A DNA stretch of 64,000 nucleotides from Daphnia carinata (lineage: Eukaryota). The stretch is from positions 13,702,001-13,766,000 of the forward strand of contig NC_081331.1 in the NCBI RefSeq assembly GCF_022539665.2. Reading direction: 5' to 3'. The position numbers were made by a program, and so were the translations under genes. The notes under the pieces are model-generated. The model searched no databases. It had not been told where the DNA came from and worked only from the letters and a program-made list of their open reading frames with translations. Below are positions 14,371 to 58,911 of this stretch, one piece after another (the stretch's first letter is position 1; each line of letters starts with the position of its first letter).

Positions 14371-15308
14371 TTACGCTAATAACAACGTTTCATTCAACAA
14401 CATCGGCGGTAATGCACGAAATGAATTATGCCAATTGAATAAGGAAGCGGGATTTGTAAATACGCTCAATCGTTCGTCTTCATTGGCCCTTCCAGTGGCG
14501 TTGATTGTAATGACGAACGTGCCCGTACCAGAAGATAAAATGATAGCGTTGTTGTTGTTATCGTTATTGTTGTTAGCGTTGTTATTATTGTTGTTGCTAT
14601 CCTGTTGCTGCTGTTGTTGTTGGCTGAGTGCTGCCGTAGTGGACGATGATGAAGCCGCGACTGCCTGCGCCACGTAGACGACAGTCGTGAAGAAAAAGAG
14701 CAAGAAGAAGGGCAAAATCAAAATTAATATTAAGGGTTTGAAGAATCCAAAACTGCCAAAGCCAAAGCTATGTTCTTTCGTCGCCGGGTAATAAGGTAAA
14801 GGTTGTGCCGCGTAGTAATGGCCTGCACTCGCGCCTCCGCTGTATCCATAAGTCTTCTTAGGATGACCATGTCTCTCTAGTTGTTGATCTGTTCCTGCTA
14901 CACTGGCTATTCGAGAGCTAACCGTAGGCTGGAAATTCGTTTTCAAATAATCTACACCTGAGAGGAACAAAACAAAACACGTACGCCAAATGTAACTACT
15001 TGTTTGAATCGCCGTAAATGACAGTCTTTCTAAATTGAATAAAAGGCTTTACCTGGATACGTGTTCGACTGTTGCACTGGTGTTACAATCGACTTGTACT
15101 GATGATACTGTTGATTGTAAAGATACGGTGGGCTTACTCTCTTCTCCCACAGGTAGGACGCTCTTCCTTTCTCGGGATTCTTGGTTGTTGTATCCTTGCC
15201 AGACTTTGATTTATCCATGTCGATTGAATTCGAATCGATGGCAAAGATGAGATGCGCGGCACCAGTCGCAACGGCCAAGAAACCGAGCCAATTGCCGAAA
15301 ATCTTCAT
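14371..15308 (-). CDS. QN-cassette TM protein (paralogue 3)
   Basis: MKIFGNWLGFLAVATGAAHLIFA signal peptide; one intron; Tyr/Gly-rich segment; TM (FFKPLILILILPFFLLFFFTTVVYV); ASSSSTTAALS-Q7-N-rich-AIIL..INATGRANED. Confidence 0.78.
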
Positions 15309-35993: not shown

Positions 35994-36792
35994 CATTCAA
36001 ATCAAATTTTGCTTTGGGTGTCACCCATTCAGATAGGCAGCTTATGTAATGTATATGGCAAGTGAATGAAGTATGGTGTTCTGGTATAGTTTACAGCTGC
36101 CGTGCTGATTCCACTGGTTCCAATCTTTGTTATTATCCATTTAATTTTTTATTTATTTGGAAAAGGTGGTTTCCGTCTTTTAGCATACACTATGGTAACT
36201 AACCCCCTGTTTTTTTTGTTATTTCCATGAATAGCGTTGTATCCATAACGTTGTGATTCTGGATTAATTCATTATTTTAATATTAACACCGCAACGCCGA
36301 CAGCGTGATGGCTCCTGGTCCTATCCATTTCGTGGCAGCCTATGATGGTTTTCGAATCCTTACTTTACCTAGAACCTTGAATTATCAAGAACGCCCCGAA
36401 CTCATCTTTCTACCCTCTGCATGGTATACTCAGGTGAACACCTTGGAGTTAGTCAGGAATTGGCGCTGGTATGTGCGTGCACGTCCAATTTTCATTTGAG
36501 TGAATTTGACGGTAAAGCGCTCACGCAACTACCGACATTGGAAACAATTGCAGTTTAAATCGAACCACACGCGCCATCCATTTTTTTCACTTCCTTAATT
36601 TCAACAATATTGATGATTTTCAATCAATAAAAACGCGGAACAACAAACAGAATGACACATTTGTATAGCCTTCTGTTGCATTGTAAGCCATATTTCTATG
36701 GCTACCGACGGACACGTTTAGCACAGGAATAAATAGATTTCATTTGTCTTCAGGACGGGCAGTACACGCTCGGCTAACACCACTTCCTCACC

Positions 36793-38322
36793 ATGTCTGT
36801 GTTTGATCAGTTACGTCCATTCGTCAGCCTTTGTCAAGCTTGCGGAATGTTTCCTTATACAATTGAAGAAAACTTAACTACAAAGAAATTTGCGAAATTC
36901 AGCTTCTCTTTCAGGCATGCGATCACCTGGTGGTTCTTGATGGTCATCAGTTTGCAAGTGACCGTTAGCGTCGGCATCATATATTCATCTATGGAGCAAA
37001 TAGGCAACTTGACAAGTGACCAAAACATGCCAATCACGGCTACCATTTTATTTGCCGTCAACTGGCCTTTCTACATATTGCAAATGTTCACAACTCGCTG
37101 GATCGTGTTCCATTATCGTCGGCTTCGAAACGTAGTGAATACCGTGCAAGAAGTGGAAAGGCTTTTCGGAGAAGAATTTGTTGTGAGGCACAAGAGCTCA
37201 ATTACGAAAATATTTATTATCAGCTTCATTTTCATTGTTACAATAGTTAGCAAACATGGAAGATGATTTCGAAATATAGGTTTTTAAAAACCTCTTTGCT
37301 TACATTTCAGGGTATAGGTGTGCTGGTTGTTATGGTGCCAGTTTACAGCTCGTTCAGTGTGGCAGATATGAACTGGATGTTCGTTGCAGCTTTCCTTTCA
37401 ATTGTGGCATTAAACAGCGTCATGTTTGACAGTACATTCCTTTTGATTCACCTGTCTTATTACATTATTGGCCATTACATGCGGCTCGTCTTGTGGGAAC
37501 CCATTGAGAACAGTGGCGAATTTAATCGGACTCCAAGCGAAAGGTGTCATTATATTTAGAATTCCGTGTTTTGACTTGAAGTAAATCTTTATGATTTTCA
37601 GGACAAGAAGAATGCAATGGCTGAAACAAAATGTCCTGATATTCGATTATCTTTGTCGAGCCACTTCGGAGCTGAACGATATTTTCGCGTTCCCTGTTTT
37701 TTACATTGTGACTACGAAATTTATCTTTGTTGTCAGTATGGCTTATGCCCAGATACAAATTATTATTCATCCAAACGTTGTTTTGGGAAATTACTGGTTG
37801 ATGTTTCCTTTCCAATTCGTAGTGGACTGGGCCCGAATATTGGTAGTTCTTACTGCCGCCGATATACCTGCCAAACAGGTTAAGCTATTAAATAATTGAT
37901 ACGAATAACAATATAATCACGCTAAATTTTGGTCATTAGGTTAATCTTCTCCATGAAAGAGTAATTGTCACGTCCTGTTCCGGATTTTACCAAACATTAG
38001 ATGAAAATATTTCAGTCCGCTTTCAATTACAATATAAACTTTCTGCATTAATAAATTGGCCTGCTTTAATGACGATTACTTACGTTTTAGGTTGCAACTA
38101 TCCTAATGCAAATTGACGAAAATCGCGTCCGCTTGTCGGCTTTTGGGCTGTTTAATGTCGGTACTCATCTTATCCCAGCAGTAAGTTTACACTTCTTCTA
38201 AATCATTTGGCTGATGTTTGGATATCCATATTTCATCAATTAAGTTATTGTACCTCATGTATCTGAATTTTCAGCTAATGGGCGCGGCCGTGACTTACCT
38301 GGTTATTCTTATTCAGAATTAG
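36793..38322 (+). CDS. Gustatory receptor (7TM chemoreceptor)
   Basis: MSVFDQLRPFVSLCQACGMFPY; multiple TM segments; ELNDIFAFP; C-terminal RLSAFGLFNVGTHLIPALMGAAVTYLVILIQN* with the three short phase-0 terminal introns typical of Grs. Confidence 0.92.
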
Positions 38323-39283
38323 CAAATTTTAAAAAAGTTGTGTCTTAGTCAAAGACGAGTTAATCTGGCTTACCCAACACAAGAACTGCTCCATCTCCTT
38401 GTACTTCATACACATCGTATCAGACCCACCCAAAACCCTTCTACAACTTCGATGGAACGCTGCATGTACCCAATGGCTCCTAAGTTTGCAAATTGTAAAG
38501 CTCTAGGACGCACTTTGTTTGGATTGTCAGCAACAATTAAGATGTCTTTTATTAATAAGCAAATAAATGGCCCTAAAACTTTATCGAGATCCATATTATT
38601 TATGCATTCGTAGCGTATCACGCTAGCTTCGTGCATTCTAGCTCTTTCAATCATTCCTGAGCTGATGCATCTAATGCACTTGGTAATCTGCCAGCCTATC
38701 AGATTTTTCTTACTTCAAGTCCCCTCCATTCGCCCGCGTGACTTGTTCGCTTCGATTAGCTTATCTGGTACTTCTTAATCTGTGAAATGTATTGATTACG
38801 ACGTTTGCTGCTCTTAAGATATGACTTGCTGCAACCTGCTATCCGATAGCCTTGAATGTGGGTCTGAAAAAGGTTTCCTCTCCCCCTGCGGTAAGACCTG
38901 TTTTTTGGTACCCTTACCTTTTTGTTTGAATATTGTTATCTTGATATAGAATATGGAAGTTGATATGTATGGGGAGAACATGGAAAACCTTAGACGAAGG
39001 CGGCTGGGAACAAAACCGCCAACACTTATCAGTCACTATAGTTTTGTTTCAGCGGGCAAACCTCTGTTTATATCTTGAAAGATTCAAGCAGTGTTATCAG
39101 CAGCCAACGGAATCTTGCAGATAGAATACCGGCAACGGTCAAGGAAATGGCGTCGACTAGAAGTTTCGTTCGAGAATAGCGAACACCACAGTTTCTTGGC
39201 TGTTTTATATCCTACATCTATGCGTTTAAGTGCAAGATCATTTTTTTAATGCTTCAGCATTCGTTGATTAACAGAAAAAGGCA

Positions 39284-40937
39284 ATGCCGAACATCATACA
39301 AACGGTGAGATTGTATTCATTTAAGCTGGTTTTGTACGATCCACGTAACTTAACTTTTATGGTTGTTGTCTTGCCGGGTTTCACTGAGCTACAGACTTTG
39401 AATTATCCAGCGCTAACTTGCAATAATGGAGAGAACAATATCTGGATTGCTTGTTCAATCCTAGAGCAGGTCAATTCGCCAATTGGCGATACAGAAGCCT
39501 CGTCCCTCAGCAACGAGGAAAAACAAATTACCGAAAAGCTTCTGAACGAAACCAAATGCTGTGGCTACTTTATCACGCACGTCTCTAGCATAGATTTCAA
39601 GTAAGAGTCTTTCTGCCCCAAGCAACTCATGCACAAGTTGATATAATCTATGAAATGCAAAATTATTTTAAATGTTACTTTTTCTTTCCATTAGATGCTT
39701 ATATCCAGAGACGTTTAATGATCAATTGGACACTTATATCCTGAAACATGCAAAGGAAAACAACTTCCTGCAAGACATTTGCTACCAATTGGTGGATTGC
39801 GTGTCATGGCTACATGAACGGAGCATTTACCGCAATAGTAAACTTCATCCTGGAAACATTTTCATCAAGACTTTTCACAGTCAGTGGAAAGTAAAGCTTA
39901 TAGTTTCCGAAAATCCTTTTCACAATTTGGACCAAGAGTACATCAATTTGTGGTCGGAAATCAATCCGGATCAGGATTTGGCACCCACGAGGGACGGAAC
40001 TGCCATCCAGAGAGACCTAGCTTCCGTAATCATCCTATTGTTTTTTATCCAGTCAGCCGGCGCTCATCCTTTTCAAATAACTACCCCTGTTGATCCGCCA
40101 CAGCCGAAAAAGCACCAAGGCGTAAAGGAACAAATTGAAAGGCACACATTCAGTTTAGTTGCCTTGGATAGAAAATGCTTTTGTCAAAGCCAAAGCGACA
40201 ACTGCGAAAATCCGCAATGCAAATATCGTTTTTGGGTCAATATGCTGGCCAAGGATTGTACGCATAGTAAGCTAACCGAAGTCTTTCATAACAAAACAAG
40301 TTCATATACCAGAGAATCGTTACGAGAATTTATGGAGCATCCCTTTTTCTGGAAGACTTCCGGAGTTCTGAGGTTCATCGAGCAATCATCAAACTACTTG
40401 AAAGAGGCACAAGATAAAGAAAAAGAAAACAAATTTGGTTATTTTTCGCCAAGTCAGTCGAACAAACGGGGACAGCGTCAGTTGCCAAGCGGTCCATCAG
40501 CTGCCACAAGGGCAATGGAAGAGGTTATACCGTGGCGACTTGATAGTGACCTTTTGACGAAAATTAAAACGAACTATAAAAACATTTTCGAGTATTTACA
40601 TGAAAAACCTCCTAAGAAATTTTTACCGTGTATCACAATTTATTACGAACTTCTCAACCAAATACGAAACAAGGTTTGAAATGCAATTTCGGATGTTAAA
40701 TCATTTATCTTGTACATTGTCTAATCGACATTCACGTTATTTGCATGACAGAGTTCTCACTGGAATGAGACGACTGCATGTGGAACTAGAGCCAGAGAAG
40801 ATTTGGAGAGAATCACGTTTGGAGCAGATAGTAATATGGATGTTCAGCATAAGTATTGTTTGTTCTGGAACATACATTTCCCCAAACTTATTCTCTACAC
40901 ATGGAAAAACCTAAAAGATGTAGTTGCGAGTCAATAA
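39284..40937 (+). CDS. IRE1/RNase L-like pseudokinase-KEN ribonuclease protein (A1)
   Basis: Degenerate kinase (LQDICYQLVDCVSWLHERSIYRNSKLHPGNIFIK; no HRD or DFG; GAHPF), then KEN: HPFFWKTSGVLRFIEQSSNYL..LLNQIRNK|SSHWNE..FWNIHFPKLILYTW. No signal peptide or TM. Confidence 0.8.
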
Positions 40938-42079
40938 ACATGTCAAGAAATGACACAGTTTTTCTATCCTGAAACCTGTTCGCTTTTAATTGATGGAAAA
41001 GGTAGATTTATATGATTATCTTTTCAAAAAGATTTTTCAGGTGCCCAGAATCCCCCGTTGTTAAAAATTCAGAGCGCTTGTGTAAAACAAAATTCTTTAT
41101 CAGTCGCCATAGCGCAAGTTGCAACGGATGACCTCTTTAAAAACCAGTAAACGCGTGGGATAAAATAGATCGAGTTGTGATGTTCACGTTGTTATCGATC
41201 CTTTGATAGCAACGCTGATAGCGACTGTAAGCCGGGTTTCGTTCGTTTTAGAAGTCCACACCGCCATTCTGGAAGAGTGGTTTAAAAAAATTTCTCATTA
41301 CAATTGCAGTTGGCTATGCACACGCCAACCTATCTTTGTACAGGCAGTTACGTCTGCGTGGATCTTTTGAATAGTTAGCTTCAACGCTTATTGAGCGACC
41401 TTTGCATGAAATTGCCGAAACATTGACAACCTTATGCACAGGCCTTTCAGAGAGTGTTGAATTTAACTATTCCCAAAATCCCAAGTTAATTCATTCACCA
41501 AGAAATCTGAAGCTAAATTTTCATTGTAAAGTAAGTTTCTTTCTTATTTTTATTTGTCGGAGAATGTTGTTGTCGTGTCGTTGTATTAAATATTGTTTTG
41601 GACGTTAGCGCACGCATTCCATTAGAATACATTTCCCAGACGATACTTAGGGTAGGCGTTATCTTTTAGCAATAAAAAAAAGTATGGAGGCTTACCCATC
41701 CTGCCACATCTTCCAATGCCTTGTTGGGTTTTCAGTCGTATCACAAGAGGCCCGATGTCTGTGCGGATAAACTGATAGACTTACACGCCGTACCACAATC
41801 ACTTTGAGAGGATAAGGGTGGGACTAAAAACGCCGGTTTTAGGCCAACTCACGTAGTATACGCATCAACAGAATTTCAGTTTTGCATTGAAACCATGAAA
41901 ATCAATTGCAATATTCAGACTAATTTTGCTACTACGGTGACTTTACGAAGTCACGTGAAAGGGAAGAGAGATTTAACATAAACTGCTTCTCTTTATGGCC
42001 TGCGTGACACAATAATTAATAATTTAATTCTAAAAAAAAGCATTTGTTTTTTCTGCTATCTGCCTTTACGCTTTGTAGG

Positions 42080-45000
42080 ATGACCATATTAGACGTTGAG
42101 TTCAATTCGGATGAGAGAAGAACTCGAAATCGGAATGCAGTTGAAAAGATCAGACAATTGACGGAACTGTTGGCTGACGTACATTCTCAAGGAAAAGAGT
42201 ATGATCAACCAATCCCGTCATCTTTCATTCCTCACCTCACTGGGGGAGAGGTTTGCGACATCACACCAGACGTGTCTGAACTTCAATCCGAATGTTCAAA
42301 TGAATGGCGGCGTGCAGAAGAAAAAGATTTGAAGTCAGGGGACATATTTTCTTTAGGATGCTACTTTTACTACGTGATCACTGGTGGTCAACACCCGTTC
42401 GGGAAGAAAGGCCATCGCACGCTGTTAATCGCTAACAATCTGTATGACTTGACAGCATGTCGAGATGGGCCTTTAAAACAACTCATAGCTAGGATGATTT
42501 GCCGTGATAGCACAAAACGGCCCAGTTCATCGGATCTGCTGAACCACCCCTACCTTTGGAAAGAAGACCGGGCGGAAAGTTACCTGGTGTCATTAGGTGA
42601 CAATCTGGACGAGAATAGTGAAAGGTATCAGATATGGAAAGACACATTTCTATTTTCATTCGAGTTGCGTGCCACTAACTTTCACATGGTTCGAGAAAAT
42701 TTTATTACAAAAAGTATTTTGAGTATCTTGATGGATATCAAGGTACGTGACTGCTCTTATATTGTGTCTGCCAAATTGAAAATCAATAATAGTAACATTT
42801 TACTGTGACATAAAGGAAAAGAAAGAAACGGCCTTAAATGCCTGTCAACTGTTTCCGGACTTGCTATCAACTGTTTACTTTAACGAGAATCCTGACGCCA
42901 TCCTAGAAGAAATCAAAAGTTCATGCCCAGAAACTCTCGGCAATGTGCTAATAGCAAATGATTGCTTTGCTGGTGTCCTGCCAGATATCGGGATCGAGAG
43001 GCGTCACGGGCGATTCGGGGCGTATCCTGTCCACGTTATGCAATTTCCGGTGATCCGCCACACCGATGATTCTATATCATTAATGACACGTCTGAGCTGC
43101 TTGAATCATCCAAATTTGTTGCAATATTTTTACCTTCGCGAAAACTCTGACAAAAAGTATTTTCATTTCATTTCACATCACTGCCTCTCTATATGAAATT
43201 GCGATTACACAATCTTTTGGTTTTTCTAGTTTGGTGTTGGCTTGTGAGCCGTTCGATGAAGTACTCAAAACTTGGATGGAGAAAAACAGCCAACTTACCT
43301 TAAATGAAGCAAAGGAAATTTTAATTCAAATCACGTTAGGTCTCGTGTACTATCATTCTAACGAACTCATTCACGGAAACCTTACATCGAGCCAAATTGC
43401 TATAACCAACAGCAACAATGCTGTTACTGCGAAGATCTGTAAATTTCTGACTGATGGCAAGTTACATTATCTGCTGTTTTACAAGCACTTGAATCACATT
43501 GTTGGCACACTGGATTCCGATATTTCAATTCACTATTAACCGTGACCTCATTTGCGTTTGCAGAAAAAGACTGTACAGAGAATTCATCTTCCACGATGCA
43601 AAATGACATTCGAAAACTGGGCCAAATTTTTGCTGATTTATTGCGACGAACGAAAGACGTGCCACCAAGCAGCCTTCATCTTATCCAGTCGATGAAAGAT
43701 ATTAGGGATGAATGTGTTCCCCCATCGGTAGCAATCTTCTACCACCCGTTCTTCTGGTCACCCAAGGAAACCGATTACTTTCGTCGGAAACGTCATATCG
43801 GCGGCCAACCAAATCCTAATATCGATGGAAATTCGTGCACGGCAAGCGTACGTCATCATTACGAAAATGAGCCCAATTCTAAACGTGTAAGTATTTTCAC
43901 CAATTTCTGAACTACCCATTGCATAGCTATTACAATTATTTCAAAGAAAACCCAGTTATTTTTTTCTCTGGATCGGTCAACTGTCATTTGAATTGCCGTA
44001 CGACAGGAAAAATGGTGTTGCGTGTTTATGTATGCATACGTTCATGCAATTATCTTTATGCAGCCTGCTTCTGACTCCGCGACGAAAGTGCAAACATCGT
44101 CTGAGATAGACAGGTGGCTAAAAGGGCAAGAAACCCAAAAATCTGCTTTTCCAAATTTCTATTACCCATTCTACAATTTTCCTACAAGGGAAAAGGTAGG
44201 TTTCCGTTGTTTGTATTGCCTTAACTACCTCATGGGTACGAATATCATTTATCAACCTGCATCTTTGCATTCATCGCCACACTTCCTCAGTCCAGCGATT
44301 ATTATTTTTCTTTAGCTTTCGGCTGGAACGCAAGAAAATATAAACAGGCAGATTGCATTGCTAAGCAAAGAACAGTATGCAGGTAACCATTTGCAGCGTT
44401 TTATTTCTAAATTTAAAAATAAATGTAACCAATACATTATTTTGCACATATTTTTATTTTAATCATTTCAAACGTCAAATGAAGTAGAAAATCAAGGGCC
44501 TCATGGTATCCAAAACTATCTCGAAAACTATTTTAAGAAATGGGCACAAGCTACGGAAGATTCTGAAGCGCCTGAACAAGTCACGAAGCATCCCGCTCCC
44601 GGCATCCCGCTATTGATTCTTCAGCATCCCGCTAGTGATTCTTCAGGAAGAACAGCCATGCACCTTGCTTGCCATTCTGATCACTTCTACGACTCGGCCA
44701 AGAAACTGCTGGAATTGGATTGCAACCCAAACATCGCAGATAAAAATGGATTCGTACCTTTGCACGTTGCTGCTCTCAATAGCTCGTTTAAGATTGCCGA
44801 ATTACTAATCGAGAACAAAGCTACTATTGACTTGTGCAACAACAAAGAATTAACAACACCTCTTTTCTGTGCCGCACTCAGCAACTCAGTTTTGATTAGC
44901 GAGCTGCTGATGAAAATGGGCGCTGACACAAATAAAGTGGATGCCTTTGGGCAAACTGTCCTTCACATTGCTGTGGTAAAAAATTCGGTAAATGTGGCGA

Positions 45001-45629
45001 AGCTTCTTCTAGAAAACGGTTGTCAGAAAAATGTTAATGCAGTTGATGATTTCGGCAAAAGTCCTTTACATATTGCCGTGTTCCACAACTTGATACAAAT
45101 GGCGCATCTGCTGCTCGACAATGGAGCAAACCCTAACGTTACCGAACCGGGGAAAAATGCTATTTCTATCCCTGTACTGCATCTTTCCGTGAAAAATAAA
45201 TCGCCCCAAATGATGGAACTGCTGCTCAGGAAAGGTGCTAACCCAAATTTAGTGACCTATCAAGGCGACACTCCATTGCACGTAGCTGCTGTTCTCACCC
45301 CGACCTGTCAAATCTGTTTACAAATGGTGAAGTTACTTATCGACTTGAAAGCAGACGTGAATGCTGTTGATGGGGGGGGCAGAACTCCGCTTCATCTTGC
45401 AATATTGAACGCGGTCGGAAAAATGGAAGGACGCGTTGCAGCAGATCATGGTGCACGAGAAGTCGTCAAGCTCCTGATTGCTAAGGGCGCGGATATCGAA
45501 GCTGATGACGACTTTGGTTCAATTCCAATTGATTATGCGAGATGCAGTAACAAAGAGGACTTCATCAAATTCATCGAGAAAAGCAGCAACGAGGAAGACT
45601 TTTCTGGGATGATGCCACTGGGCGCGTAG
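42080..45629 (+). CDS. Pseudokinase / degenerate-KEN x2 plus C-terminal ankyrin repeat protein (B1)
   Basis: IRE1-like C-lobe GDIFSLGCYFYYVITGGQHPFG..RPSSSDLLNHPYLW; KEN remnant FPDLLSTVY; second pseudokinase LNHPNLLQYF..QITLGLVYYHSNELIHGNL..HPFFW; then multiple ANK repeats. Start codon inferred. Confidence 0.75.
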
Positions 45630-46019
45630 CTAAGTCCAGCTGAGAAGACAGTATATTCCGAGTTGAAAACAAAATTTAACAAAGACCGACACTGGCATGA
45701 AGTAAGCTACTCGATAAACATAAACGTTGCTTATGAACAACAAGAATTGTATTAGAGTTTTTAGACACTGTGCTGATCCAGCACTACACTGATCATAATT
45801 TCAATCACATGTGTCTTTGTAATGGGCTTTGTAGGCTGCAAAGACAGTCATCTGATTTTTAAAATCCCTTAATAATTTCTCTATGCAAATAAACAGGTAT
45901 AAGCTACTCAATTACTGTCCGATGAAATCGGTATTAAACACACATATCCATACGATGCTTAACTTAATAGTTCTCTGTATTAAATAATACAAAGCCAAAT
46001 ATGGGATAACTACTGTAAG

Positions 46020-46195
46020 TAGTGGGTGTGCACGACAGCAGGTCTGAAACTCTCCGTTTGTGTGCTGCAGAATATTTTTACGCTTCATCCGGACTGGGCG
46101 GGCTGTCATGCTGGCCTTGACGGCGTTAGCCTCGCTAGGAACGGCGGCTACCAAGTTAGCAATAGAAGTAACAGGAAAGGGCATTCGTTCCATGA
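46020..46195 (-). pseudogene. 3' fragment of the LRYR-precursor paralogue at the duplication junction
   Basis: PVTSIANLVAAVPSEANAVKASMTARPVRMKRKNILQHTNGEF matches PVTPIANFVAAVASEVDAVKASLTAGPVRMKRKNILRYRNGEF of 58339-58911; no 5' part. Confidence 0.8.
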
Positions 46196-47001
46196 GAATT
46201 GGTGATTTACAACCCCTTCAGCGTGGCAAACATGAATTGGATGTTCGTTGCAGCTTAGTTTTCAACTACCACATTAATCGGCGTCTTGTTTGACTTCTTG
46301 ATTCTTAAGCTGTGAACTGTATTGATTACGACGTTTGGTGCTTTTAAGATCTGGCTTGCTGCGACCTGCTATCCAATAGCTCCGAATGTGGCTCCGAAAA
46401 AGGTTACCTATTCCCCTATGCGGTAAGACCTGATTTTGGTGCCCTTACTTCTTTTTTTGTTTTGAATAGTGCTACCTTGATATAGAATATGGAAGTTGGC
46501 ACGTAAGGGAGGAACATGGAAAGACTAAAGCGAAGGAGGCTGAGCTAGATTTCACTGGCTATTTTCTTACTCTTCCCATTGTACCTCAATTGTAGGCAGG
46601 CGGTTCGTCATTGACTTTTTCTTTCCCGTTTTTTTAGACAACTGTATGATTTTCCCAACGAAATTGTTGAATGTAAAGTTATTGCGGTTCCGCATGCACG
46701 TAATCGTTGTTCAGTTAGTACCGCGCACACTTATCAGTCACTAGAGTTCTATTTCAGCGAGCAAACTTTTAGTTACATCCCGAAACGTCAGAGCAATGTT
46801 ATCAGCAGCCAACGTAATCTTAAAGATAGAATACTAACAAGGGGCAGGGAAATGGCGTCGACTTCAAGTTTCGATCGGGAGTAGCAAACATCACAGTGTC
46901 TTATAAGAAATATAGCCGTTTTACATCCTATACCTATGCACGTATAAGTACAAGATCATTTTCTTAATAATTTAGCCATCGTTGATTGGCAGAAAAAGAC
47001 A

Positions 47002-48683
47002 ATGTCGAACATCGTACAAACGGTGAGATTGTATTCATTTTAAATTGATTTTGTACGATCCATGTAACTAACCTTTATGGTTGTTGTCTTGCCGGGTTTC
47101 ACCGAACTACAGAGGTTGGATTATCCAGCACTAACTTGCAATAATGAAGAGAACACTAATTTTCAAGGCATGTCAATTGCAATCCAAAAACACGTCAAGT
47201 CAGACATAATAAAAATTAAGTCATCTCGTTCGAGCGAAGAAAAAAAACGACAGCTAATTTTCGAAATACTTCAGAACGAAAACAACTGCCAAGGTTACTT
47301 TTTCGATTACGTTCCTTCAATGAATTTCAGGTAAGAGCCTCACATCTCCGAGCAACTCAGACACAATTTGATATCGCATATGAATTACAAATATTATTTG
47401 GAATGATTTTTTTTTCTTCACTAAGGCACGTATATCTCGAAACGTGTAATGATACATTGGACACTTATATCCGGAAACATGCAATGAACAGCAACTTTCG
47501 ATGGACCATACTGCAGGAGATTTGCTGCCAATTGGTGGATTCGGTAGCCTGGCTGCATCAACGAGGGTTTTATTACAATGGCCAACTTCATCCTCGTAAC
47601 ATTTTCATCAAGACTTGTAACAGTCCGTGGAAAGTAAAACTTCAACTTTCCGAAAAGGCAAATCCCTTTCACGGTCTGGACACAGAGTACGTTAATTTGT
47701 GGTCTGGAATAAAAGAATCGGACTTATTGAACAAATCTGCGGACGAAATTGCCATCCAGAAAGATCTAGTTTCCGTAACCATGTTGATGTTTTTCATCCA
47801 ATCATCTGGCGTTCATCCTTTTCAAAGAACTAGCACTCTTGATCCGGTCGAACGGGAAAACTACCAATGCATACAGAACCAAATTAAAGAGGGCATATTT
47901 GCACTAGATGCCTTGGATAGAAAATGTTTTTGTGCCGACGAAAACGAAAACTGCGAAGAGACGCAATGCAAATATCGTTTATGGGTCAACAAGCTGGCCA
48001 AGGATCATACATATGCTATGCTAACCGAGCTCATTCGCGAAACAAAGTCATATGACAAAAAATCGTCTGAAAAGCTTATGGAACATCCCTTTTTCTGGAA
48101 GACTTCAGGAGTTCTGAGGTTCATCGAAAATTCATCAAACTACTTAAAGGAAGCAAAAAATAAAACGAAAGAAAACTTATTCGGTGTTTTTCCGCAACGG
48201 CAGACAAAAGCAAGTGGAAAAATTGGATTTAAAAAAAATTCATCAGCTTCTATCCAGCAAAGCCAAGTTCATCAACCATGGATGCTGGATCATATCATTT
48301 TGACAAAACTTGAAAACAACCATAAAGACATTTTCAACTATTTACATGAAACGCCTACAAGGACCGGCCAGACATCTATCACAAATTTTTGCGGACTTCT
48401 GACCCAAATACGGAACAAGGTTTGAAATGCAATTTCATATTCTAAGAACCTGTGCTAGACTTTGCCTAATCAACCCTCACGGTGTTTTGTGCGGCAGAGT
48501 TGTCATTGGAATGAAGCAACACCATGTGGACCTGATGCCAAAAGAAATTTGGAAAATCTAAGCTTTGCAGCAGATAATGATATGGATGCTCGTCTTAAGT
48601 TTTGTTTGTTCTGGAACATACATTTCCCCGAACTTATTGTCTACACTTGGACAAACCTTAAAGACGTAATTGTGCATCAATAG
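47002..48683 (+). CDS. IRE1/RNase L-like pseudokinase-KEN ribonuclease protein (A2)
   Basis: Same exon structure as A1; WLHQRGFYYNGQLHPRNIFIK; HPFFWKTSGVLRFIENSSNYL..LLTQIRNK|SCHWNE..FWNIHFPELIVYTW. Confidence 0.8.
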
Positions 48684-49879
48684 GCATGCCAAGAAATGAC
48701 TGGTTTTCTATCCTGAAACCCTGTTTGCCCTTAATTGGCAAAGAAATTATGTTTTATCTGACCGCCTTTTTTCAAAAAGATTTTCCAAGTGCCTAAGTTA
48801 AACCCACGTTTTTAAAAATTCAGAGCACTTGTGTAAAACGAGCTTCGTTATCAGTCGCCATAGCGCAAGTTGCAACAGATTAAAAAGGAGTCTTTGTCAA
48901 GTAAATATGTGAGACAAAATACATCGAGTTGCAACGTCCACGTTGCTATCTAGGCTATACGTCGAGCAACACGTACAACGGCTGAGCCATTCGATAAGCA
49001 CACTCATCAAAATTATGATTAGCTAACTACAGTTAGCTATACAAGCGCCAACGCGCCTTTGCGCAGGCAGTTACGTTTGTGTGGATCTCTTGAATAGTTA
49101 ACTTCAACACTTATTGAACGGCCTTTGCATGCAATTGGCAAGACATTGCTAATTTTATGCGCAGAACTTTCAGGAAGTGTTGATTTTAACTATCCCAGAA
49201 ATCGCACTTTAATTCTCCCGCAAGAAAACTGAGACGAATTTCTTATCGTGTATTAAAGTAAGTTTCATTACTATTTTCTATTGTATACTACTCTGCAATA
49301 AGTGTTTCTAAACTATAGTTATTAAATATCGGTTAATACGGTGTGACCGGAATATTACATCTGTTAGAATCTGAAGCATAGGTGCAAATCCCAGAAGAAA
49401 TAACGTTTTTGGGTTTTAAAAAATTTAACTAATGATTTTTTACGCACCGTTTTCTCCCACCAGAAAAAAAAATAGTGATATGTAGGATGGGCCTTATCTT
49501 TTAGCATTAAAAGCTATGGGCGCTTACCCGTCCTCTTGCTGCCTCCTACTGCCTCACTTTCAGTTGTCCTATCACAAGACGCCATATGTCTGTGCAGATA
49601 AATTAATAGGCTTACACGTCGTATCGCAATCACCTTGACAGAATTGGGGTGGGGGGGCTAAACTGCGAGTTTACGCCAAGTCACGCAGTAGACGTACCAA
49701 TATGAATTTCCCAATTTCACAGGGAAATCAGAACAAACAACTACAATAATCTAACCAATCGTGCAACACAAGGGTGACTTTCCAAAGTCACGTGAAAGGA
49801 GAAAGAGATTTACGATGAGCTGCTTTTTTAAAAATGTGAATGCCATATAATACTCTAAACCAAATCATTGCTTTATAGG

Positions 49880-52800
49880 ATGGCCATAGGGGAACTTGAT
49901 TTTTATTCGGATCAGAATAGAAAAATTCGGGTTCTTGAAAAGAAAGTACAAGAACTTCTGATCCAATCCACTGAAAATTTGGTACGCATCCATTCCCAAG
50001 GAAATGTGCATGGAAAACCAATCATCCCAATTTCTTTTAACCCTTATTCATCCGGGGAAAATGTACGTAACATCAAACTAAACGAGCCTGAACCAAACGA
50101 ATTTTCAAATGAATGGCGGCCAGCTGAAGAAAAAGATTCGGAGCCATCTCAAGCTGGGGACATATTTTCGTTGGGATGCAGCTTCTACTCAGTCATCACT
50201 GGTGGCCAGCATCCGTTCGGGAAGCCAGGCCATCGTGCCCTGTTTATCGCTAAAAATCTATACGATTTGTCTGAATGTCGAGATGAGCAACTTAAAAAAC
50301 TCATAGCCAGGATGATTTGTCATGATAGAACAAAACGACCCAGTTTATCCGATCTGTTGAACCATCCGTACCTTTGGAAAGAAGAACGGGTGGAAAATTA
50401 CTTAATGGCATCAGCTGAAAATCTGGACGAGAACAACGAAAAGTATAAAATATGGAAAGACACAGTTCTATTGTCGTCAAGCGCACCATCCTTTGATTCT
50501 GACACAGTCCAAAAAACTACGATTGTAAAAAGTGTTGTAGAAATTCTGATGGAATTAAAGGTGAATGGCTGCTGTAATATTTCCGTAGTGCAATGAAAAC
50601 TTAAGAGTTTGATTCCTTTCGGCATAGGAAAAGAAAGAGACGGCCCTAAATGTCTATCGGCTGTTTCCCGATTTGCTGTTCTCTGTATACTTTGCCGAAA
50701 ATCCCGGTGTCATCCATGACGAAATCGAAAATTCAGGACCAGAAACATTCGGTAATGTGCTGATAGCAAATGATTGCATCAAAGAAGTCCAGCCGACTAT
50801 CGGGGTCAAGAGACGTTATGGCCGATTCGGATCGCAACCCGTCCATGTGATGCAATTTTCGGTTTTTACCGCTGAATCGATATCCTTAATGAAACGCCTA
50901 AGCTGCTTGAAACATCAAAATTTACTGCGATATTTTTACCTTGCCGAAAACCCTGTCAAAAAGTACATTCAAATCGTTTTATATCATTGCCTAACTAAAC
51001 AATTTAACTATAAAATCTTTTTGTTTTTCAGTTTGGTGTTGGCTTGTGAGCCGTTCGATGAGACACTCGACACTTGGATAGCGAAGAACAGTCAGCTGAT
51101 AAACTTGGAAACGGCAAAGGAAATTTTAACTCAAATAACGTCAGGTCTCGTGTACTACCATTCTAACAATCTCATTCACGGGAACCTCACATCCAGCCAA
51201 ATCGCTATAACCAACAGCGGAACTCTTACTGCAAAAATCTGTAAATTTCTGATTGATGGTAAGTTACATTATCTGCTGTTTTACAAGCACTTGAATCACG
51301 TCAAAAAATGTATTTCAAAATTTCAATTCATTATTAACCATCCCCTCGTTTGCCCTTGCAGAAAAAGACTGTACAAAGAATCCATCGCCCACAATGCAAA
51401 ACGACATTCGAAAACTGGGCCAAATTTATGCTGATGTATTAGAACAAACACTGGACGCGCCACCATGCAGCCGTCATCTTATCCAGTCGATGCAAGATAT
51501 TAGGGATGAATGTATTCCCCCATCGGGAGCAATCTTCTGCCACCCGTTCTTTTGGTCATCCGAGATCACCGCAGATTTTCTTCTGGTAGCTGGTGACTTT
51601 TACAAAGAAAATCCGAATATCGATAGAGATTCGCGGCTTATTACTGTGCCGTCACCGGCACCCGAACGTCAACATCTCAAAACAAACAGATCGGCCATTG
51701 AATCCTTTTTGCAACATGTAAGTATTTTCACCAATATTTAGACCGCACATTGCATAGCTATTAGAATTATCTTAAAGAAAACACAGTTACTTTTTTCTGT
51801 GGATGGCTCAACTGCCATTTGAAGGGTCGTATGTGCACGACAGGCAATGGTGCTGCATATTTTATGTATACATACAGTTTGTACGTTCATGCAATTATCT
51901 TTGCGCAGGCCACCCATGACTCCTCGGCAGAAGAGCTAATATCGCTTGCCATGGATTTGTTAAACGATTGTCCCGAGCTAATCACCCAGACGTGGCTTAG
52001 GTTGCAAAAATTCAAATCCGCTGATGAATCTGAACTTGCAGATTTCTATCACCCAATCTACGATTTTCCTACAGATGAAAAGGTAGGTTTCCGTTGTTTG
52101 TGTTGTCTTAACTAACACAGGTAAGAATATCGTTTACAAACCTGAATCTTTTGTATTCATCGGCATACTTACTCAGCCCAACGTTTATTATTTTCTCTTT
52201 AGCTTGTGGATGGAACGCAAGAGAATATGAACAGGCAGATTGCATTGCTAGGCAACGAACAGTATGAAGGTGACCATTTGTAGCCTTTTATTTCTAAATT
52301 TAAAAATAAATCTAACCAATAAATTGCTTCGTACAGAATTTTTCATTGAAGGATTTCAAACGTCAAATACCCTGGAGAACCAAGTGCCTCATGTTACTCA
52401 AAACTATCTCCACAACTATCTTCAGAAATATGCACTAGCTATGGAAGATTATGGAACGACTGGAAAAGTCATAAAGCATCCCGCTATTGATCCTTTCGGA
52501 AGAACAGCCATGCACCTTGCTTGCCACTCGGACGACTTCTACACTTCGGCCAGTAAATTGCTGGAATTTGATTTCGATCCAAACATCGAAGATAAAAATG
52601 GATTCGTACCTTTGCATGTTGCTGCTCTCAATAACTCGTTTAAGATTGCCAAGTTACTAATCGAGAACGAAGCTATTATTGACTTATGCAACAACAAAGA
52701 ATTAAGAACGCCTCTTTTCTTTGCCGCACTCAGCAACTCAGTTTTGATTAGCGAGTTGCTGATGAAAATGCGCGCTGACGCAAATAAAGTGGATGCCTTT

Positions 52801-53889
52801 GGACAAAGTCCCCTTCACATTGCTGTGGAAATAAACTCGGTAGAAGTGGCGGAACTTCTTCTGGAAAACGGTGCGAATGTTAATGCAGTAGACGATTTCG
52901 GCAGAAGTCCTTTACATATTGCCGTGTTCCATAACTCGATAGAAATGGCGTATCTGCTGCTCAACAACAGAGCCAACCCTAACGTTAACCAACCGGGGAA
53001 AAAAGCTACTGCTGCTCCTGTGCTGTATCTTGCCGTGACAAAAGAATCACTCCAAATGGTAGACCTTCTGCTCAAGGCAGGTGCCGATCCAAATTTAACC
53101 ACATCACAAGGCGAAACTCCATTGCACGTAGCTGCGCTTCTCAAACCGACATGTCCAATCCGATCACAAATAGTAAAGTTACTTATCGACTGGAAAGCAA
53201 ATGTGAATGCTGGGGATATGAGGGGTCGAACTCCGCTTCATCTTGCAACATTCAACGCGGCTGAAGAAATTGTAAAACAGTTATTGGAATACCAATTTAT
53301 CGAAATCAATTCAAAGGACAACATTCGAGGGATAACTCCCTTACACTTGGCTGCTTGGTATGGTCGTGAAAACATAGCTGAATTACTTATTGGCAAAAAA
53401 GCCAAAGTTGATGTCGAAGATAAAAATCGCCAAACACCTCTCGAATACGCTGCTTCATCAAATTCCGTTAATGTAGCCAAACAGTTATTAACAGCCGGTG
53501 CCGCAGCAAAAACACGGAATTACCAGAAGAGTTACCGTTCACCGTTACATATTGCAGCAGCCCATGGTGCACGAGAAGTCGCCGAGCTCCTGATTGAAAA
53601 AGGCGCGGATGTGTATGCCACTGACGGGTTTGATTTAACTCCGTTTCATTATGCGGAATGCCGTAACCAGAAGAACTTCTTTCAGTTCCTCCAGAAAAGC
53701 AGCAATGAGAAACATTTGTCTCATTCTTTAATGAGCAAGCAACTTAGTCCAGCAGACATGGCCGAAATTTATGAATTGACAAACAGTTTTCAACATATGA
53801 CTCTCCCTGGCATTGAAGTAAGCTTGTCTGGCTTTCAAAACCAGGTCGATAGTATAACCGTTGCTTATCAACAAGTATTGATGTACTAG
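49880..53889 (+). CDS. Pseudokinase / degenerate-KEN x2 plus C-terminal ankyrin repeat protein (B2)
   Basis: GDIFSLGCSFYSVITGGQHPFG, HPYLW, FPDLLFSVY, YHSNNLIHGNL, HPFFW, then a longer ANK array than B1. Confidence 0.78.
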
Positions 53890-55330
53890 AAATTTTAGAC
53901 ACTATGCTAATCCAGCACGCTGTTGCTCATCATTTTAATCACATGTGCATTTGTAGTGAGTTTTGTAGGCAGTAAGACAGTCACCTGATTTTAAAAATCC
54001 CCCCCAAATTTTTGCTAAGCGAATAAACAGGTTAATTGCCGATCAATTAAATTGCTATTAATCCGCCCACCCCCAACACATACACGCATTCATACGATGT
54101 TTATCTTAATAGTGGCCTGTACTACAATACGTCGAACATGGAATAACTGCCATAATATAGCTATCAAACTATTTAATCGTTTATTCGAACGATCCCTACC
54201 TGTAAAGTGCACCTGAGAGCCCTCATGAGCCGGTGTTTAACGTCGGCCAGAGTTCATTTGCGCTCAACTGTACTAAACCGGTTTTATGGAAATAAACTCT
54301 AGTAGTCCTGACTGATGTTGTGATTGTTATGAATGCCGAAGGAGACCAATTAAATCAAACCGGTACTGCCGTTTCCAAGGTTACTCAAAGCTAAGCAGAG
54401 TGCACTAACGGCCAGACATTCCTGACGTTTTAGTAATTACTTTCCCGTTTTCTACCTGCGACGAAGGTCAATATTGAGACTAGCAGACACACAATACCGT
54501 TTCTACACGAGAGCAAGAAAAAGAACTAAAGAAAACAAAAAACATCCCTTTAACAAGGTCGACATCGTTACGTAAGCCATTCATAAAAATGTTCAGCCTT
54601 CCAGACTTGTACCTCCATCTTCGGGAAATATGCGATTTCTATTAAATTGAAGCAGCTGAAAATCGATTGAGTAATTTCTAGGATTTCCTACCCTTACTTA
54701 AAAATATGAAGGCAGCATTAAACCTTCACAATTTGAACACCTTCGTCTTACTGAGCTTGTCAACGGCTATGGAGTCCTTTAGCTAAGGTTATCAATGAAG
54801 GTGAGAGCGCAAGAATGATAGAAATTATGCCTAAATAGGTGTGGTCTTTACTATAAATAAACAACGAATAAAACTACCCACCCAAGCCGATGAATTTGGC
54901 AATAAGAGCAAAAAGAAAAAGAGTGTAAATAGACACGTGATTAATACCACAATGATAACGTTCCAAACACGTTAATCTATTAAGGAGAAGACTAAATTTT
55001 GATTTTATGCAGAATACGCGTTGCTGCGGGTTTTCCCAGCAACATTTGCGTTTCGCTCGACATTTGTTGCATTCGCAGTGCAACTACCCACTTCATCAAC
55101 TACCTGCAATGACCTCCATGTAATCGACAAAGAACGAAACCAGTTTTCATTTTTCGCATTTATTTATCATGGCTTTAAGTCTACACGGTGAGTTCCAGCT
55201 GAAGAGATGCTATAGCACCGTTCAGAGTTAGCTCGTAGTTACGTTGTTAGAATTTAAAAGTAACTGAATCATGTAATCGCTTGATGGCTCGTCCGAAAGT
55301 GTTCATTTCCTAGTCGTGGCTTAGGCAGGT

Positions 55331-58338: not shown

Positions 58339-58911
58339 TTAATCCCAAAATGTCGTGTCCATAGTTGATTCATATTCGTCATATGGCTTTTCAGACAAGC
58401 ATAACGTAGGTGTGCACAACGTAGGCCTGAACTCGCCATTTCTGTACCGCAGAATGTTTTTACGTTTCATTCGGACTGGGCCGGCTGTGAGGCTGGCCTT
58501 GACGGCGTCAACCTCACTTGCAACGGCTGCTACAAAGTTGGCAATAGGAGTAACAGGTAAGTCATCAGGAAGAGCATTTGTTCCACGAAAATTGGTGACG
58601 TAAGACGTGCGAACGATGTCATCACTTCCCGAGGCCCATGGTCCGAATGAGTTACCGACGCCATCAACAAAGACGGGGGCAGTTCCAGCGAGGATGGGAT
58701 AGGCAAAATCCACCTGGCCCAGTTGGTCCTGCAGGACCCATCCTAGTGGGATGGCGACCGTTTGCAGTTGGTAGTTTTCATGGCTACCAAGAAACCGAGC
58801 ATCAATGGTCGTTGCCAAAAGTAAGGCATAAACAATCTAAATAGCAAAATTGATCAATTCTCGAATTAATGCATGAAATGTAAATTTTTATTCGCTTACT
58901 TTACACATCAT
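58339..58911 (-). CDS. Secreted paralogue of the LRYR precursor (single repeat)
   Basis: MMCK|IVYALLLATTIDA, with the same 4-codon first exon and gtaagc donor. Shares IP..W, D..GN..G.WA, PVR.KR and ILRYRNG. Confidence 0.75.

Follow-up and report, generated by a model that had tools for sequence, protein, structure and literature searches.

Two tandem copies of an A-B gene unit

Within a 64-kb window of the Daphnia carinata genome (the whole analysed stretch of 64,000 nucleotides from contig NC_081331.1, to which all coordinates below refer) lies a tandemly repeated pair of genes on the forward strand, in which gene A, encoding a truncated pseudokinase joined to a candidate KEN ribonuclease domain, is followed by gene B, encoding two degenerate kinase-KEN blocks and an array of ankyrin repeats. 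When the two copies were compared with each other by blastn, unit 1 (A1, spacer, B1 and flanks) was delimited at 38772..46011 (+) and unit 2 (A2, spacer, B2 and flanks) at 46302..54148 (+), the two aligning as four collinear blocks of 70-83% DNA identity with the spacers aligned too. The A+B unit measures ~7.5 kb and its tandem copies stand at about 73% DNA identity; a stretch peculiar to unit 2 (53260-53552) holds ankyrin repeats beyond those of unit 1, and tblastn detected no third copy of the unit within the window. A first-pass annotation, made from the sequence of this window, had described four plus-strand genes in A-then-B order as a duplicated "split RNase L-like" module whose copies are strongly diverged in protein sequence while both A genes keep the catalytic motif. 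The coordinates, the order, the duplication and the divergence are all borne out (55% of residues are shared between A1 and A2 and 64% between B1 and B2, with the motif kept in both A proteins), whereas both "split" and "RNase L-like" have to be revised, as set out below.

We built spliced models of all four genes by hand. A1 (39284..40937, +) has four exons (39284-39304, 39395-39600, 39695-40673 and 40752-40937) and encodes a protein of 463 residues, a truncated pseudokinase plus KEN, that is identical to NCBI LOC130691656 (P0001); A2 (47002..48683, +) likewise has four exons (47002-47022, 47113-47330, 47426-48419 and 48498-48683), and its translation of 472 residues is identical to LOC130691655 (P0004). 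B1 (42080..45629, +) comprises seven exons (42080-42742, 42816-43156, 43230-43456, 43564-43886, 44064-44195, 44316-44382 and 44488-45629) that encode 964 residues, equal to isoform X2 of LOC130691644 (P0012), and B2 (49880..53889, +) comprises seven exons (49880-50560, 50628-50962, 51032-51258, 51362-51717, 51909-52082, 52203-52269 and 52337-53889) that encode 1130 residues. The B2 gene is intact, with an open frame and GT-AG boundaries at every intron, and aligns collinearly with P0015, the orthologue from D. sinensis, in which 884 of 1122 aligned residues are identical (79%) and every junction is regular. B2 was missing from the annotated proteins of a homology search that did recover the more distant D. 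magna orthologues, and may be unannotated or annotated under another form.

The possibility that A and B are a single mis-split gene was considered and rejected: the A stop codon is present in both copies and in all orthologues, and the A-B spacer of 1142-1196 nucleotides carries in-frame stops ahead of the B start codon (ATG). In relatives, a full-length spliced A reading frame of 477 residues occurs on 20 contigs assembled from sequencing runs, and spliced B reading frames of 1140 and 1092 residues occur on assembled contigs of 4092 and 3740 nucleotides; since B transcripts of these lengths leave no room for A, the two genes are carried on separate mRNAs.

Several details of processing were noted alongside these models. 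Intron 3 has a GC donor in B1 (G|gcaagt, intron 43457-43563), which is accepted in the NCBI model, and a GT donor in B2 (G|gtaagt, intron 51259-51361). The NCBI isoforms X1, X2 and X3 of B1 differ solely at the acceptor between intron 6 and exon 7 (44383-44500), where they read EQYAVENQ, EQYAENQ and EQYAGPHG, differences that correspond to closely spaced alternative acceptors; the exon 7 acceptor of B2 lies further upstream than that of B1, with 13 more residues retained. The stop codon of A1 is contained in an AATAAA signal (40933-40938), and neither AATAAA nor ATTAAA occurs within ~190 nucleotides 3' of the A2 stop.

Gene A and its relation to IRE1 and RNase L

Two kinase-KEN ribonucleases have been studied well: IRE1, which acts in the unfolded-protein response, and RNase L, which serves the antiviral defence of vertebrates. 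A profile built from ten members of the A family ranked 16 IRE1 sequence sets first among PDB sequences (expect values, E, of 1.5e-7 to 2.6e-4), with a match that stays collinear from the kinase through HPFFW at the junction to RNK, and RNase L was absent from the 34 rows at E<=1. A profile search of 1.84 billion representatives recovered 79 proteins at E<=1e-3, about two dozen of which are A-family members, chiefly single-exon fragments. When 42 of the 79 were scanned with Pfam, 12 A-family fragments carried no family at all and 26 of the 30 long proteins carried Pkinase plus Ribonuc_2-5A. The A-like family itself (P0018-P0036) comprises more than 20 clusters that are mutually less than 50% identical, far beyond the seven named Daphnia proteins.

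Structural comparison pointed in the same direction. An AlphaFold2 (AF2) model of A1 computed from a 56-sequence alignment reached a predicted local distance difference test score (pLDDT) of 79.7 and a predicted TM-score of 0.80, and adopts the kinase-KEN fold that the first-pass annotation had anticipated. Its top Foldseek matches are IRE1 kinase-RNase structures throughout, and VIA-align returned Z scores of 19.3-22.1 for IRE1 (30 entries, A1 residues ~46-463) as against 16.1-16.8 for RNase L (10 entries) and 15.5 at most for kinase-only chains, which cover A1 residues ~40-295 only. An independent ESM Atlas model of A scored a TM of 0.57-0.62 to clusters carrying Pkinase plus Ribonuc_2-5A over residues 43-463. 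By profile and by predicted fold, A is a kinase fold followed by a KEN fold, nearer to IRE1 than to RNase L.

Closer inspection of the KEN part of A reveals a catalytic motif that is assembled across a splice junction. It reads R400-N-K-S-S-H405 in A1 and R-N-K-S-C-H in A2, and the spliced reads IRNK|SSHW and IRNK|SCHW, already proposed in the first-pass annotation, are real across a 78-nucleotide phase-0 intron that directly follows the K codon of RNK in both genes. The R-N-K codons close exon 3 (R400-N401-K402 at 40665..40673 in A1, aligned with R-N-K of the IRE1-type RNKKHH; 48411..48419 in the spliced model of A2) and the next three codons open exon 4 (S403-S404-H405 at 40752..40760 in A1; S-C-H at 48498..48506 in A2; all +), completing R-x4-H. 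In the 56-row alignment, IRNKSxHW of A falls on RNKKHH and FPxLxxYTW of A on FPxLLxHTY, and the R, N and H of the A motif coincide with the catalytic R, N and H of IRE1. R400 is kept in 25 of 25 A-family rows and N401 in 20 of 25, the remaining five having D (IRDK), while His405 is found in all 12 rows that reach that point (seven full-length proteins and five of six last-exon fragments, the sixth of which begins downstream). Because A-family fragments end in IRNK followed by V, which is read-through into a GT donor, the intron after RNK is conserved family-wide. The HEPN superfamily motif, given in the available text of PMC3710099 as R-x4-6-H with a polar residue after R, is present in A and absent from both KEN-like blocks of B.

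The kinase part of A has lost its active site. N/D-S/G-K/R/Q stands in the place of HRD, the DFG motif has been deleted, and both the glycine loop and the VAIK region are gone, which makes A a truncated pseudokinase. The stretch ahead of the kinase part is just 45-75 residues long, and no signal peptide or membrane span was found in A, the sole Kyte-Doolittle peak of at least 1.6 (A1 184-202) being the kinase alpha-F helix; nor does A have a PQQ or beta-propeller Pfam match, unlike P0043, P0083 and P0087. The profile, the AF2 fold and the motif alignment all agree with the earlier description of A as a cytosolic pseudokinase-KEN protein with a HEPN-type R-x4-H, and the lack of a hydrophobic N-terminus, lumenal part or membrane span agrees with its exclusion from canonical IRE1. 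A is predicted to be a cytosolic, metal-independent endoribonuclease. The family alignment further shows a four-cysteine insert in the pseudokinase C-lobe (C237, C239, C246 and C251 of A1; 40176..40220, +), of which C237, C239 and C246 are retained in 22-25 of 24-27 A-family rows and C251 was read off the alignment. The insert is nearly without counterpart in 17 other kinase-KEN rows, only 0-2 of which have a residue there. Its cysteines are spaced C-x-C-x6-C-x4-C in A1, with a matching part in A2, and the insert is possibly a zinc knuckle.

Several observations count against the assignment of a KEN domain to A. On sequence alone the assignment is weak: four A proteins score on either side of the Pfam Ribonuc_2-5A (PF06479) gathering cut-off of 23.3 bits (A1 23.4, A2 23.2, P0002 19.4 and P0008 29.8), A1 alone returned nothing significant from PDB sequences by phmmer (IRE1 at E 0.6-0.95), and a KEN-only profile of four A proteins recovered no IRE1 from the PDB, just RPL27 at E 0.094. 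A first AF2 run on 10 family sequences alone was poor and unusable (pLDDT 38.5), and the alignment behind the good model of A1 contained IRE1-like sequences. Moreover, the Tyr of IRE1, which is catalytic, has no clear aligned counterpart in A. Among the three Pfam domains that the first-pass annotation had named, Ank and Pkinase are indeed matched in B and Ribonuc_2-5A hovers around its cut-off in A, whereas the A proteins match neither Pkinase nor Ank.

Set beside the two well-studied enzymes, A shares with IRE1, its best profile and fold match, the domain order, the HPFFW junction, R-N-K-x-x-H and the C-terminal FPxL helix; however, it lacks the lumenal sensor and membrane span of canonical IRE1 as well as the VAIK Lys, HRD Asp and DFG Asp of an active kinase, its N-lobe is truncated, and it has both the extra four-cysteine insert and a very long tree branch. 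With RNase L it shares the character of a predicted cytosolic nuclease in which a pseudokinase is joined to a KEN with R-x4-H, in a system that includes ankyrin repeats, but the fold match is weaker than that to IRE1 (Z 16-17 as against 19-22), RNase L is missing from the profile rows that IRE1 leads at E 1.5e-7, and the Daphnia ankyrins are generic, C-terminal and in a separate protein (B), where those of RNase L are N-terminal in the same chain. RNase L is activated by 2-5A bound to its ankyrin and pseudokinase domains, and the Daphnia proteins are not known to have any connection with 2-5A. "RNase L-like" is thus an analogy and not a statement of membership. As far as the available text of PMC10400998 goes, the RNase L lineage is reported in jawed vertebrates only, and gains of ankyrins elsewhere are judged independent.

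Gene B and the common descent of its blocks with A

The first block of B1 (42080..42742, +; residues 1-221) consists of half a pseudokinase, the C-lobe from about helix alpha-E on, and the start of a dead KEN in the form of a minimal KEN-like stretch. Its first phmmer match in the PDB is IRE1 (E 9.5e-15, residues 79-178, from kinase helix alpha-F into the KEN start), and hhalign aligns it with the A family at 96% probability. The block has no N-lobe, and a remnant of a lost N-lobe exon was sought in three spacers, where nothing better than E 0.07 was found. The block ends in ILMDIK at a phase-0 intron, reading ILMDIK|EKKE where A has QIRNK|SSHW, so that the intron is the same and R, N and H are lost. 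The second block (42816..44195, +) is a full pseudokinase with a Pfam Pkinase score of 60.5 bits in P0012 (56-60 bits, in two stretches, among the B proteins), in which VHVM, HGN and CKF replace VAIK, HRD and DFG; it matches CDK6 and IRE1 in the PDB at ~E 1e-5 and is followed by HPFFW and then by an eroded KEN-like stretch without the R, N, H motif. Pfam gave no Ribonuc_2-5A match in the B proteins, and language-model features of B residues 1-600 lie nearest to IRE1-like clusters (score 0.96). The first-pass picture of B as two pseudokinase/degenerate-KEN blocks plus ankyrins therefore stands as regards the array and the loss of function in both blocks, with the correction that block 1 is only half a kinase.

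The ankyrin array is encoded by exon 7 in both genes, at 44488..45629 (+) in B1 (Pfam Ank E 1.9e-52, Ank_2 E 2.8e-51) and, together with a C-terminal tail, at 52337..53889 (+) in B2 (Pfam Ank E 1.2e-77, PDB ankyrin-1 E 1.3e-124). It lies at the C-terminus, has 8-12 repeats and is generic, of the ankyrin-1 kind; the best 60 of 360 ankyrin matches of B2 do not include RNase L.

Intron positions connect these blocks with A. Intron 2 of A and intron 2 of B are both phase 2 and lie immediately 5' of an LxLExC motif, and intron 3 of A, intron 1 of B and intron 4 of B are all phase 0 at the RNK position. The coincidence of these positions shows A, B block 1 and B block 2 to be tandem paralogues of one IRE1-derived unit. 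The term "split" would imply a fused ancestor, and this part of the first-pass label gave way: the intron positions point instead to tandem duplication of a single kinase-KEN unit, and no fused form of A was found with the A profile among 3073 candidates of 864-2465 residues, an earlier search having covered 179-571 residues and the range of 571-864 residues lying outside both. A tree of 41 kinase-KEN segments, which included no named RNase L, does not order A, B block 1 and B block 2; the three sit apart on long branches (2.1-2.7 changes per site), about which the tree program issued a warning, and no origin of the A and B modules is read from it.

Conservation, divergence and possible action of the pair

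A and B are neighbours in D. carinata and, judging from consecutive accession numbers, appear to be so in D. sinensis and D. magna too, as the first-pass annotation would lead one to expect. The A proteins of D. sinensis are KAI9565922 and 925 and its B proteins 923 and 926, with one number between the two pairs; D. magna has the order A-B-A (KAK4018931, 932 and 933), and a second assembly of this species has the order A-B (KZS03582 and 583). Orthology runs unit by unit, with 76% identity between A2 and A 723 of D. sinensis and 79% between B2 and B 926, and A1 and B1 have both accelerated, sharing 60% and 59% of residues with the D. sinensis proteins that correspond to them. Between the paralogues, the ratio of nonsynonymous to synonymous substitution rates (dN/dS) is lowest in the second pseudokinase of B (0.35), the most constrained part of the locus.

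Given this divergence, we considered whether the locus, or at least unit 1, is evolutionary debris made up of fast-evolving, functionless duplicates of an IRE1 fragment. Paralogue dN/dS is high overall (0.64 for A and 0.54 for B) and reaches 0.91, a value of neutral evolution, in the second KEN-like stretch of B; in B1 this stretch is eroded by in-frame deletions (exon 4 has 323 nucleotides as against 356 in B2, and exon 5 has 132 as against 174), the ankyrin array has shrunk by ~90 residues and the C-terminal tail has gone, and A1 and B1 both sit on long branches. Because the second KEN-like stretch of B1 is neutral and carries deletions, and because ankyrin repeats have been lost, unit 1 may be decaying, and these observations also tell against a functional A-B pair. 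Nevertheless, each of the four genes has an uninterrupted reading frame and valid splice sites, the family retains the catalytic R and H in more than 20 clusters that share less than half of their residues, and orthologues exist in three species, with spliced transcripts in relatives. We regard the debris reading as very improbable.

The reading that we favour, while holding it at a little under even confidence, is that A is a cytosolic, IRE1-derived pseudokinase-KEN nuclease and that the paralogous B is its regulatory partner. In IRE1 and RNase L, the nucleotide pocket promotes self-pairing. The KEN RNases of both enzymes are understood to work solely as dimers, and A appears to be without a nucleotide pocket that could drive its own pairing. 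Since a KEN would need a dimer and A has lost the pocket, the dead kinase-KEN modules of B would supply the dimer partner. Binding at the ankyrin array would then gate RNA cleavage at the single active site of A, with B acting either as an activator or as a holding inhibitor. The dimerisation-activation model is borrowed for the Daphnia pair from RNase L, whose activity arises through induced dimerisation as described in the available text of PMC11672174.

An inhibitory form of such pairing has the opposite sign: B would be a holding inhibitor or decoy whose dead KENs would bind A and block it until something removes or modifies B or engages its ankyrins, in a guard-type or toxin-antitoxin-like arrangement. 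It draws on the same evidence as pairing in general, namely duplication of the unit, neighbouring genes in relatives and joint acceleration, and the HEPN RNases of conflict systems are, in the text available from PMC3710099, often restrained by a partner. Yet the data do not separate activation from inhibition and the binding itself is putative, and we consider this sub-case unlikely.

Alternatively, A may act alone as a self-paired KEN dimer, perhaps through its N-terminal tail or the four-cysteine insert, with B, unrelated to it in function, an ankyrin scaffold that rests on dead kinase-KEN modules and the adjacency of the two due to tandem duplication only. The coinciding intron positions, which make A and B tandem paralogues, fit this well, as do the A-B-A order in D. 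magna, the separate mRNAs (B transcripts of 3740 and 4092 nucleotides cannot hold A) and the possession by A of a conserved, family-specific feature in its four cysteines. It sits less easily with the loss from A of the nucleotide pocket for self-pairing, with the finding that the pair was duplicated and has been kept unit by unit since before the D. carinata/D. sinensis split, both members of unit 1 having sped up together, and with the dead kinase of B being under the strongest constraint in the locus. We therefore treat independent action of A as a real possibility, to which we give clearly less than even credence.

Regulation of A by B, which we continue to prefer, meets further difficulties of its own. 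Adjacency alone shows no functional pair, because tandem-born paralogues are neighbours by descent, and the A-B-A order leaves one A of D. magna without its own B. The two blocks of B could also pair with each other within one chain, excluding A, and the binding of A to B is putative. A complex prediction with B1 residues 1-600 and A1 residues 70-463 scored 0.00 in both runs, in which the alignments were unused and the controls unfolded, and carries no weight either way.

A bolder extension of the pairing model, which we find doubtful, is that the pair is a two-component equivalent of RNase L that arose independently in water fleas out of parts of IRE1. The ankyrins of B would sense a pathogen product or second messenger, the dead modules of B would serve as a template on which A enters a heterodimer whose one active site cuts RNA in the cytosol, and the two fast-evolving units would represent two receptor-nuclease specificities in an arms race.

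Kinase-KEN modules joined to a sensor-type domain are also found elsewhere outside vertebrates, in uncharacterised proteins. Ankyrin-kinase-KEN proteins occur in the sea anemones Actinia tenebrosa (P0076) and Actinostola sp. (P0089 and P0122), in the tunicate Styela clava (P0070, P0123 and P0124) the kinase-KEN module is fused to a RIG-I-like helicase that includes the helicase C-terminal domain, and further fusions involve LRR (P0061), PARP (P0055) and zf-CCCH (P0064) domains. Given these sea anemone and tunicate proteins, the notion that KEN serves as an effector module is not new. These fusions, however, are single chains with a kinase and KEN that score normally in Pfam, whereas the Daphnia locus splits the catalytic KEN and the repeats over two genes in which both kinases are dead; what is new here is the two-gene form with dead paralogous partners. 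Las1-Grc3 offers a looser analogy, as a HEPN-type nuclease paired with a kinase on a separate chain (PMC10942766). Its RNase activity depends on that second polypeptide, but it belongs to another family, with a different fold context and a function in rRNA processing. A literature search found no paper that describes these Daphnia genes, and the HEPN survey, in its available portion, mentions Daphnia just for a different, Swt1-type expansion (PMC3710099).

The locus would add to IRE1 and RNase L a third use of the kinase-KEN module, as a cytosolic, kinase-dead and lineage-specific nuclease. It is probably regulated by a second, paralogous protein in which the scaffold persists, the active site is gone and ankyrin repeats have been added. 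If A and B pair, they would form a natural heterodimer of an active and a dead KEN, and would offer in Daphnia magna, for which CRISPR and known parasites are at hand, a tractable model of how HEPN nucleases come under sensor control when invertebrates meet infection or stress. Where a survey for relatives of RNase L depends on Pfam thresholds, members as diverged as these can be overlooked.

With regard to the surroundings of the two units, none of the 25 flanking open reading frames scanned matched a recognised immune-gene family. Matches among the neighbouring frames were to Lig_chan/ionotropic receptor (832-1422, -), weakly to TMEM62_C (14371-15048, -) and to 7tm_7/gustatory receptor (36778-37266, +). 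Within the spacer between B1 and A2, the parts at 46022-46205 and 46206-46294 match two other places in the window, 58406-58598 and 37342-37430, at 78-80% identity, and these are probably fragments of dispersed repeats.

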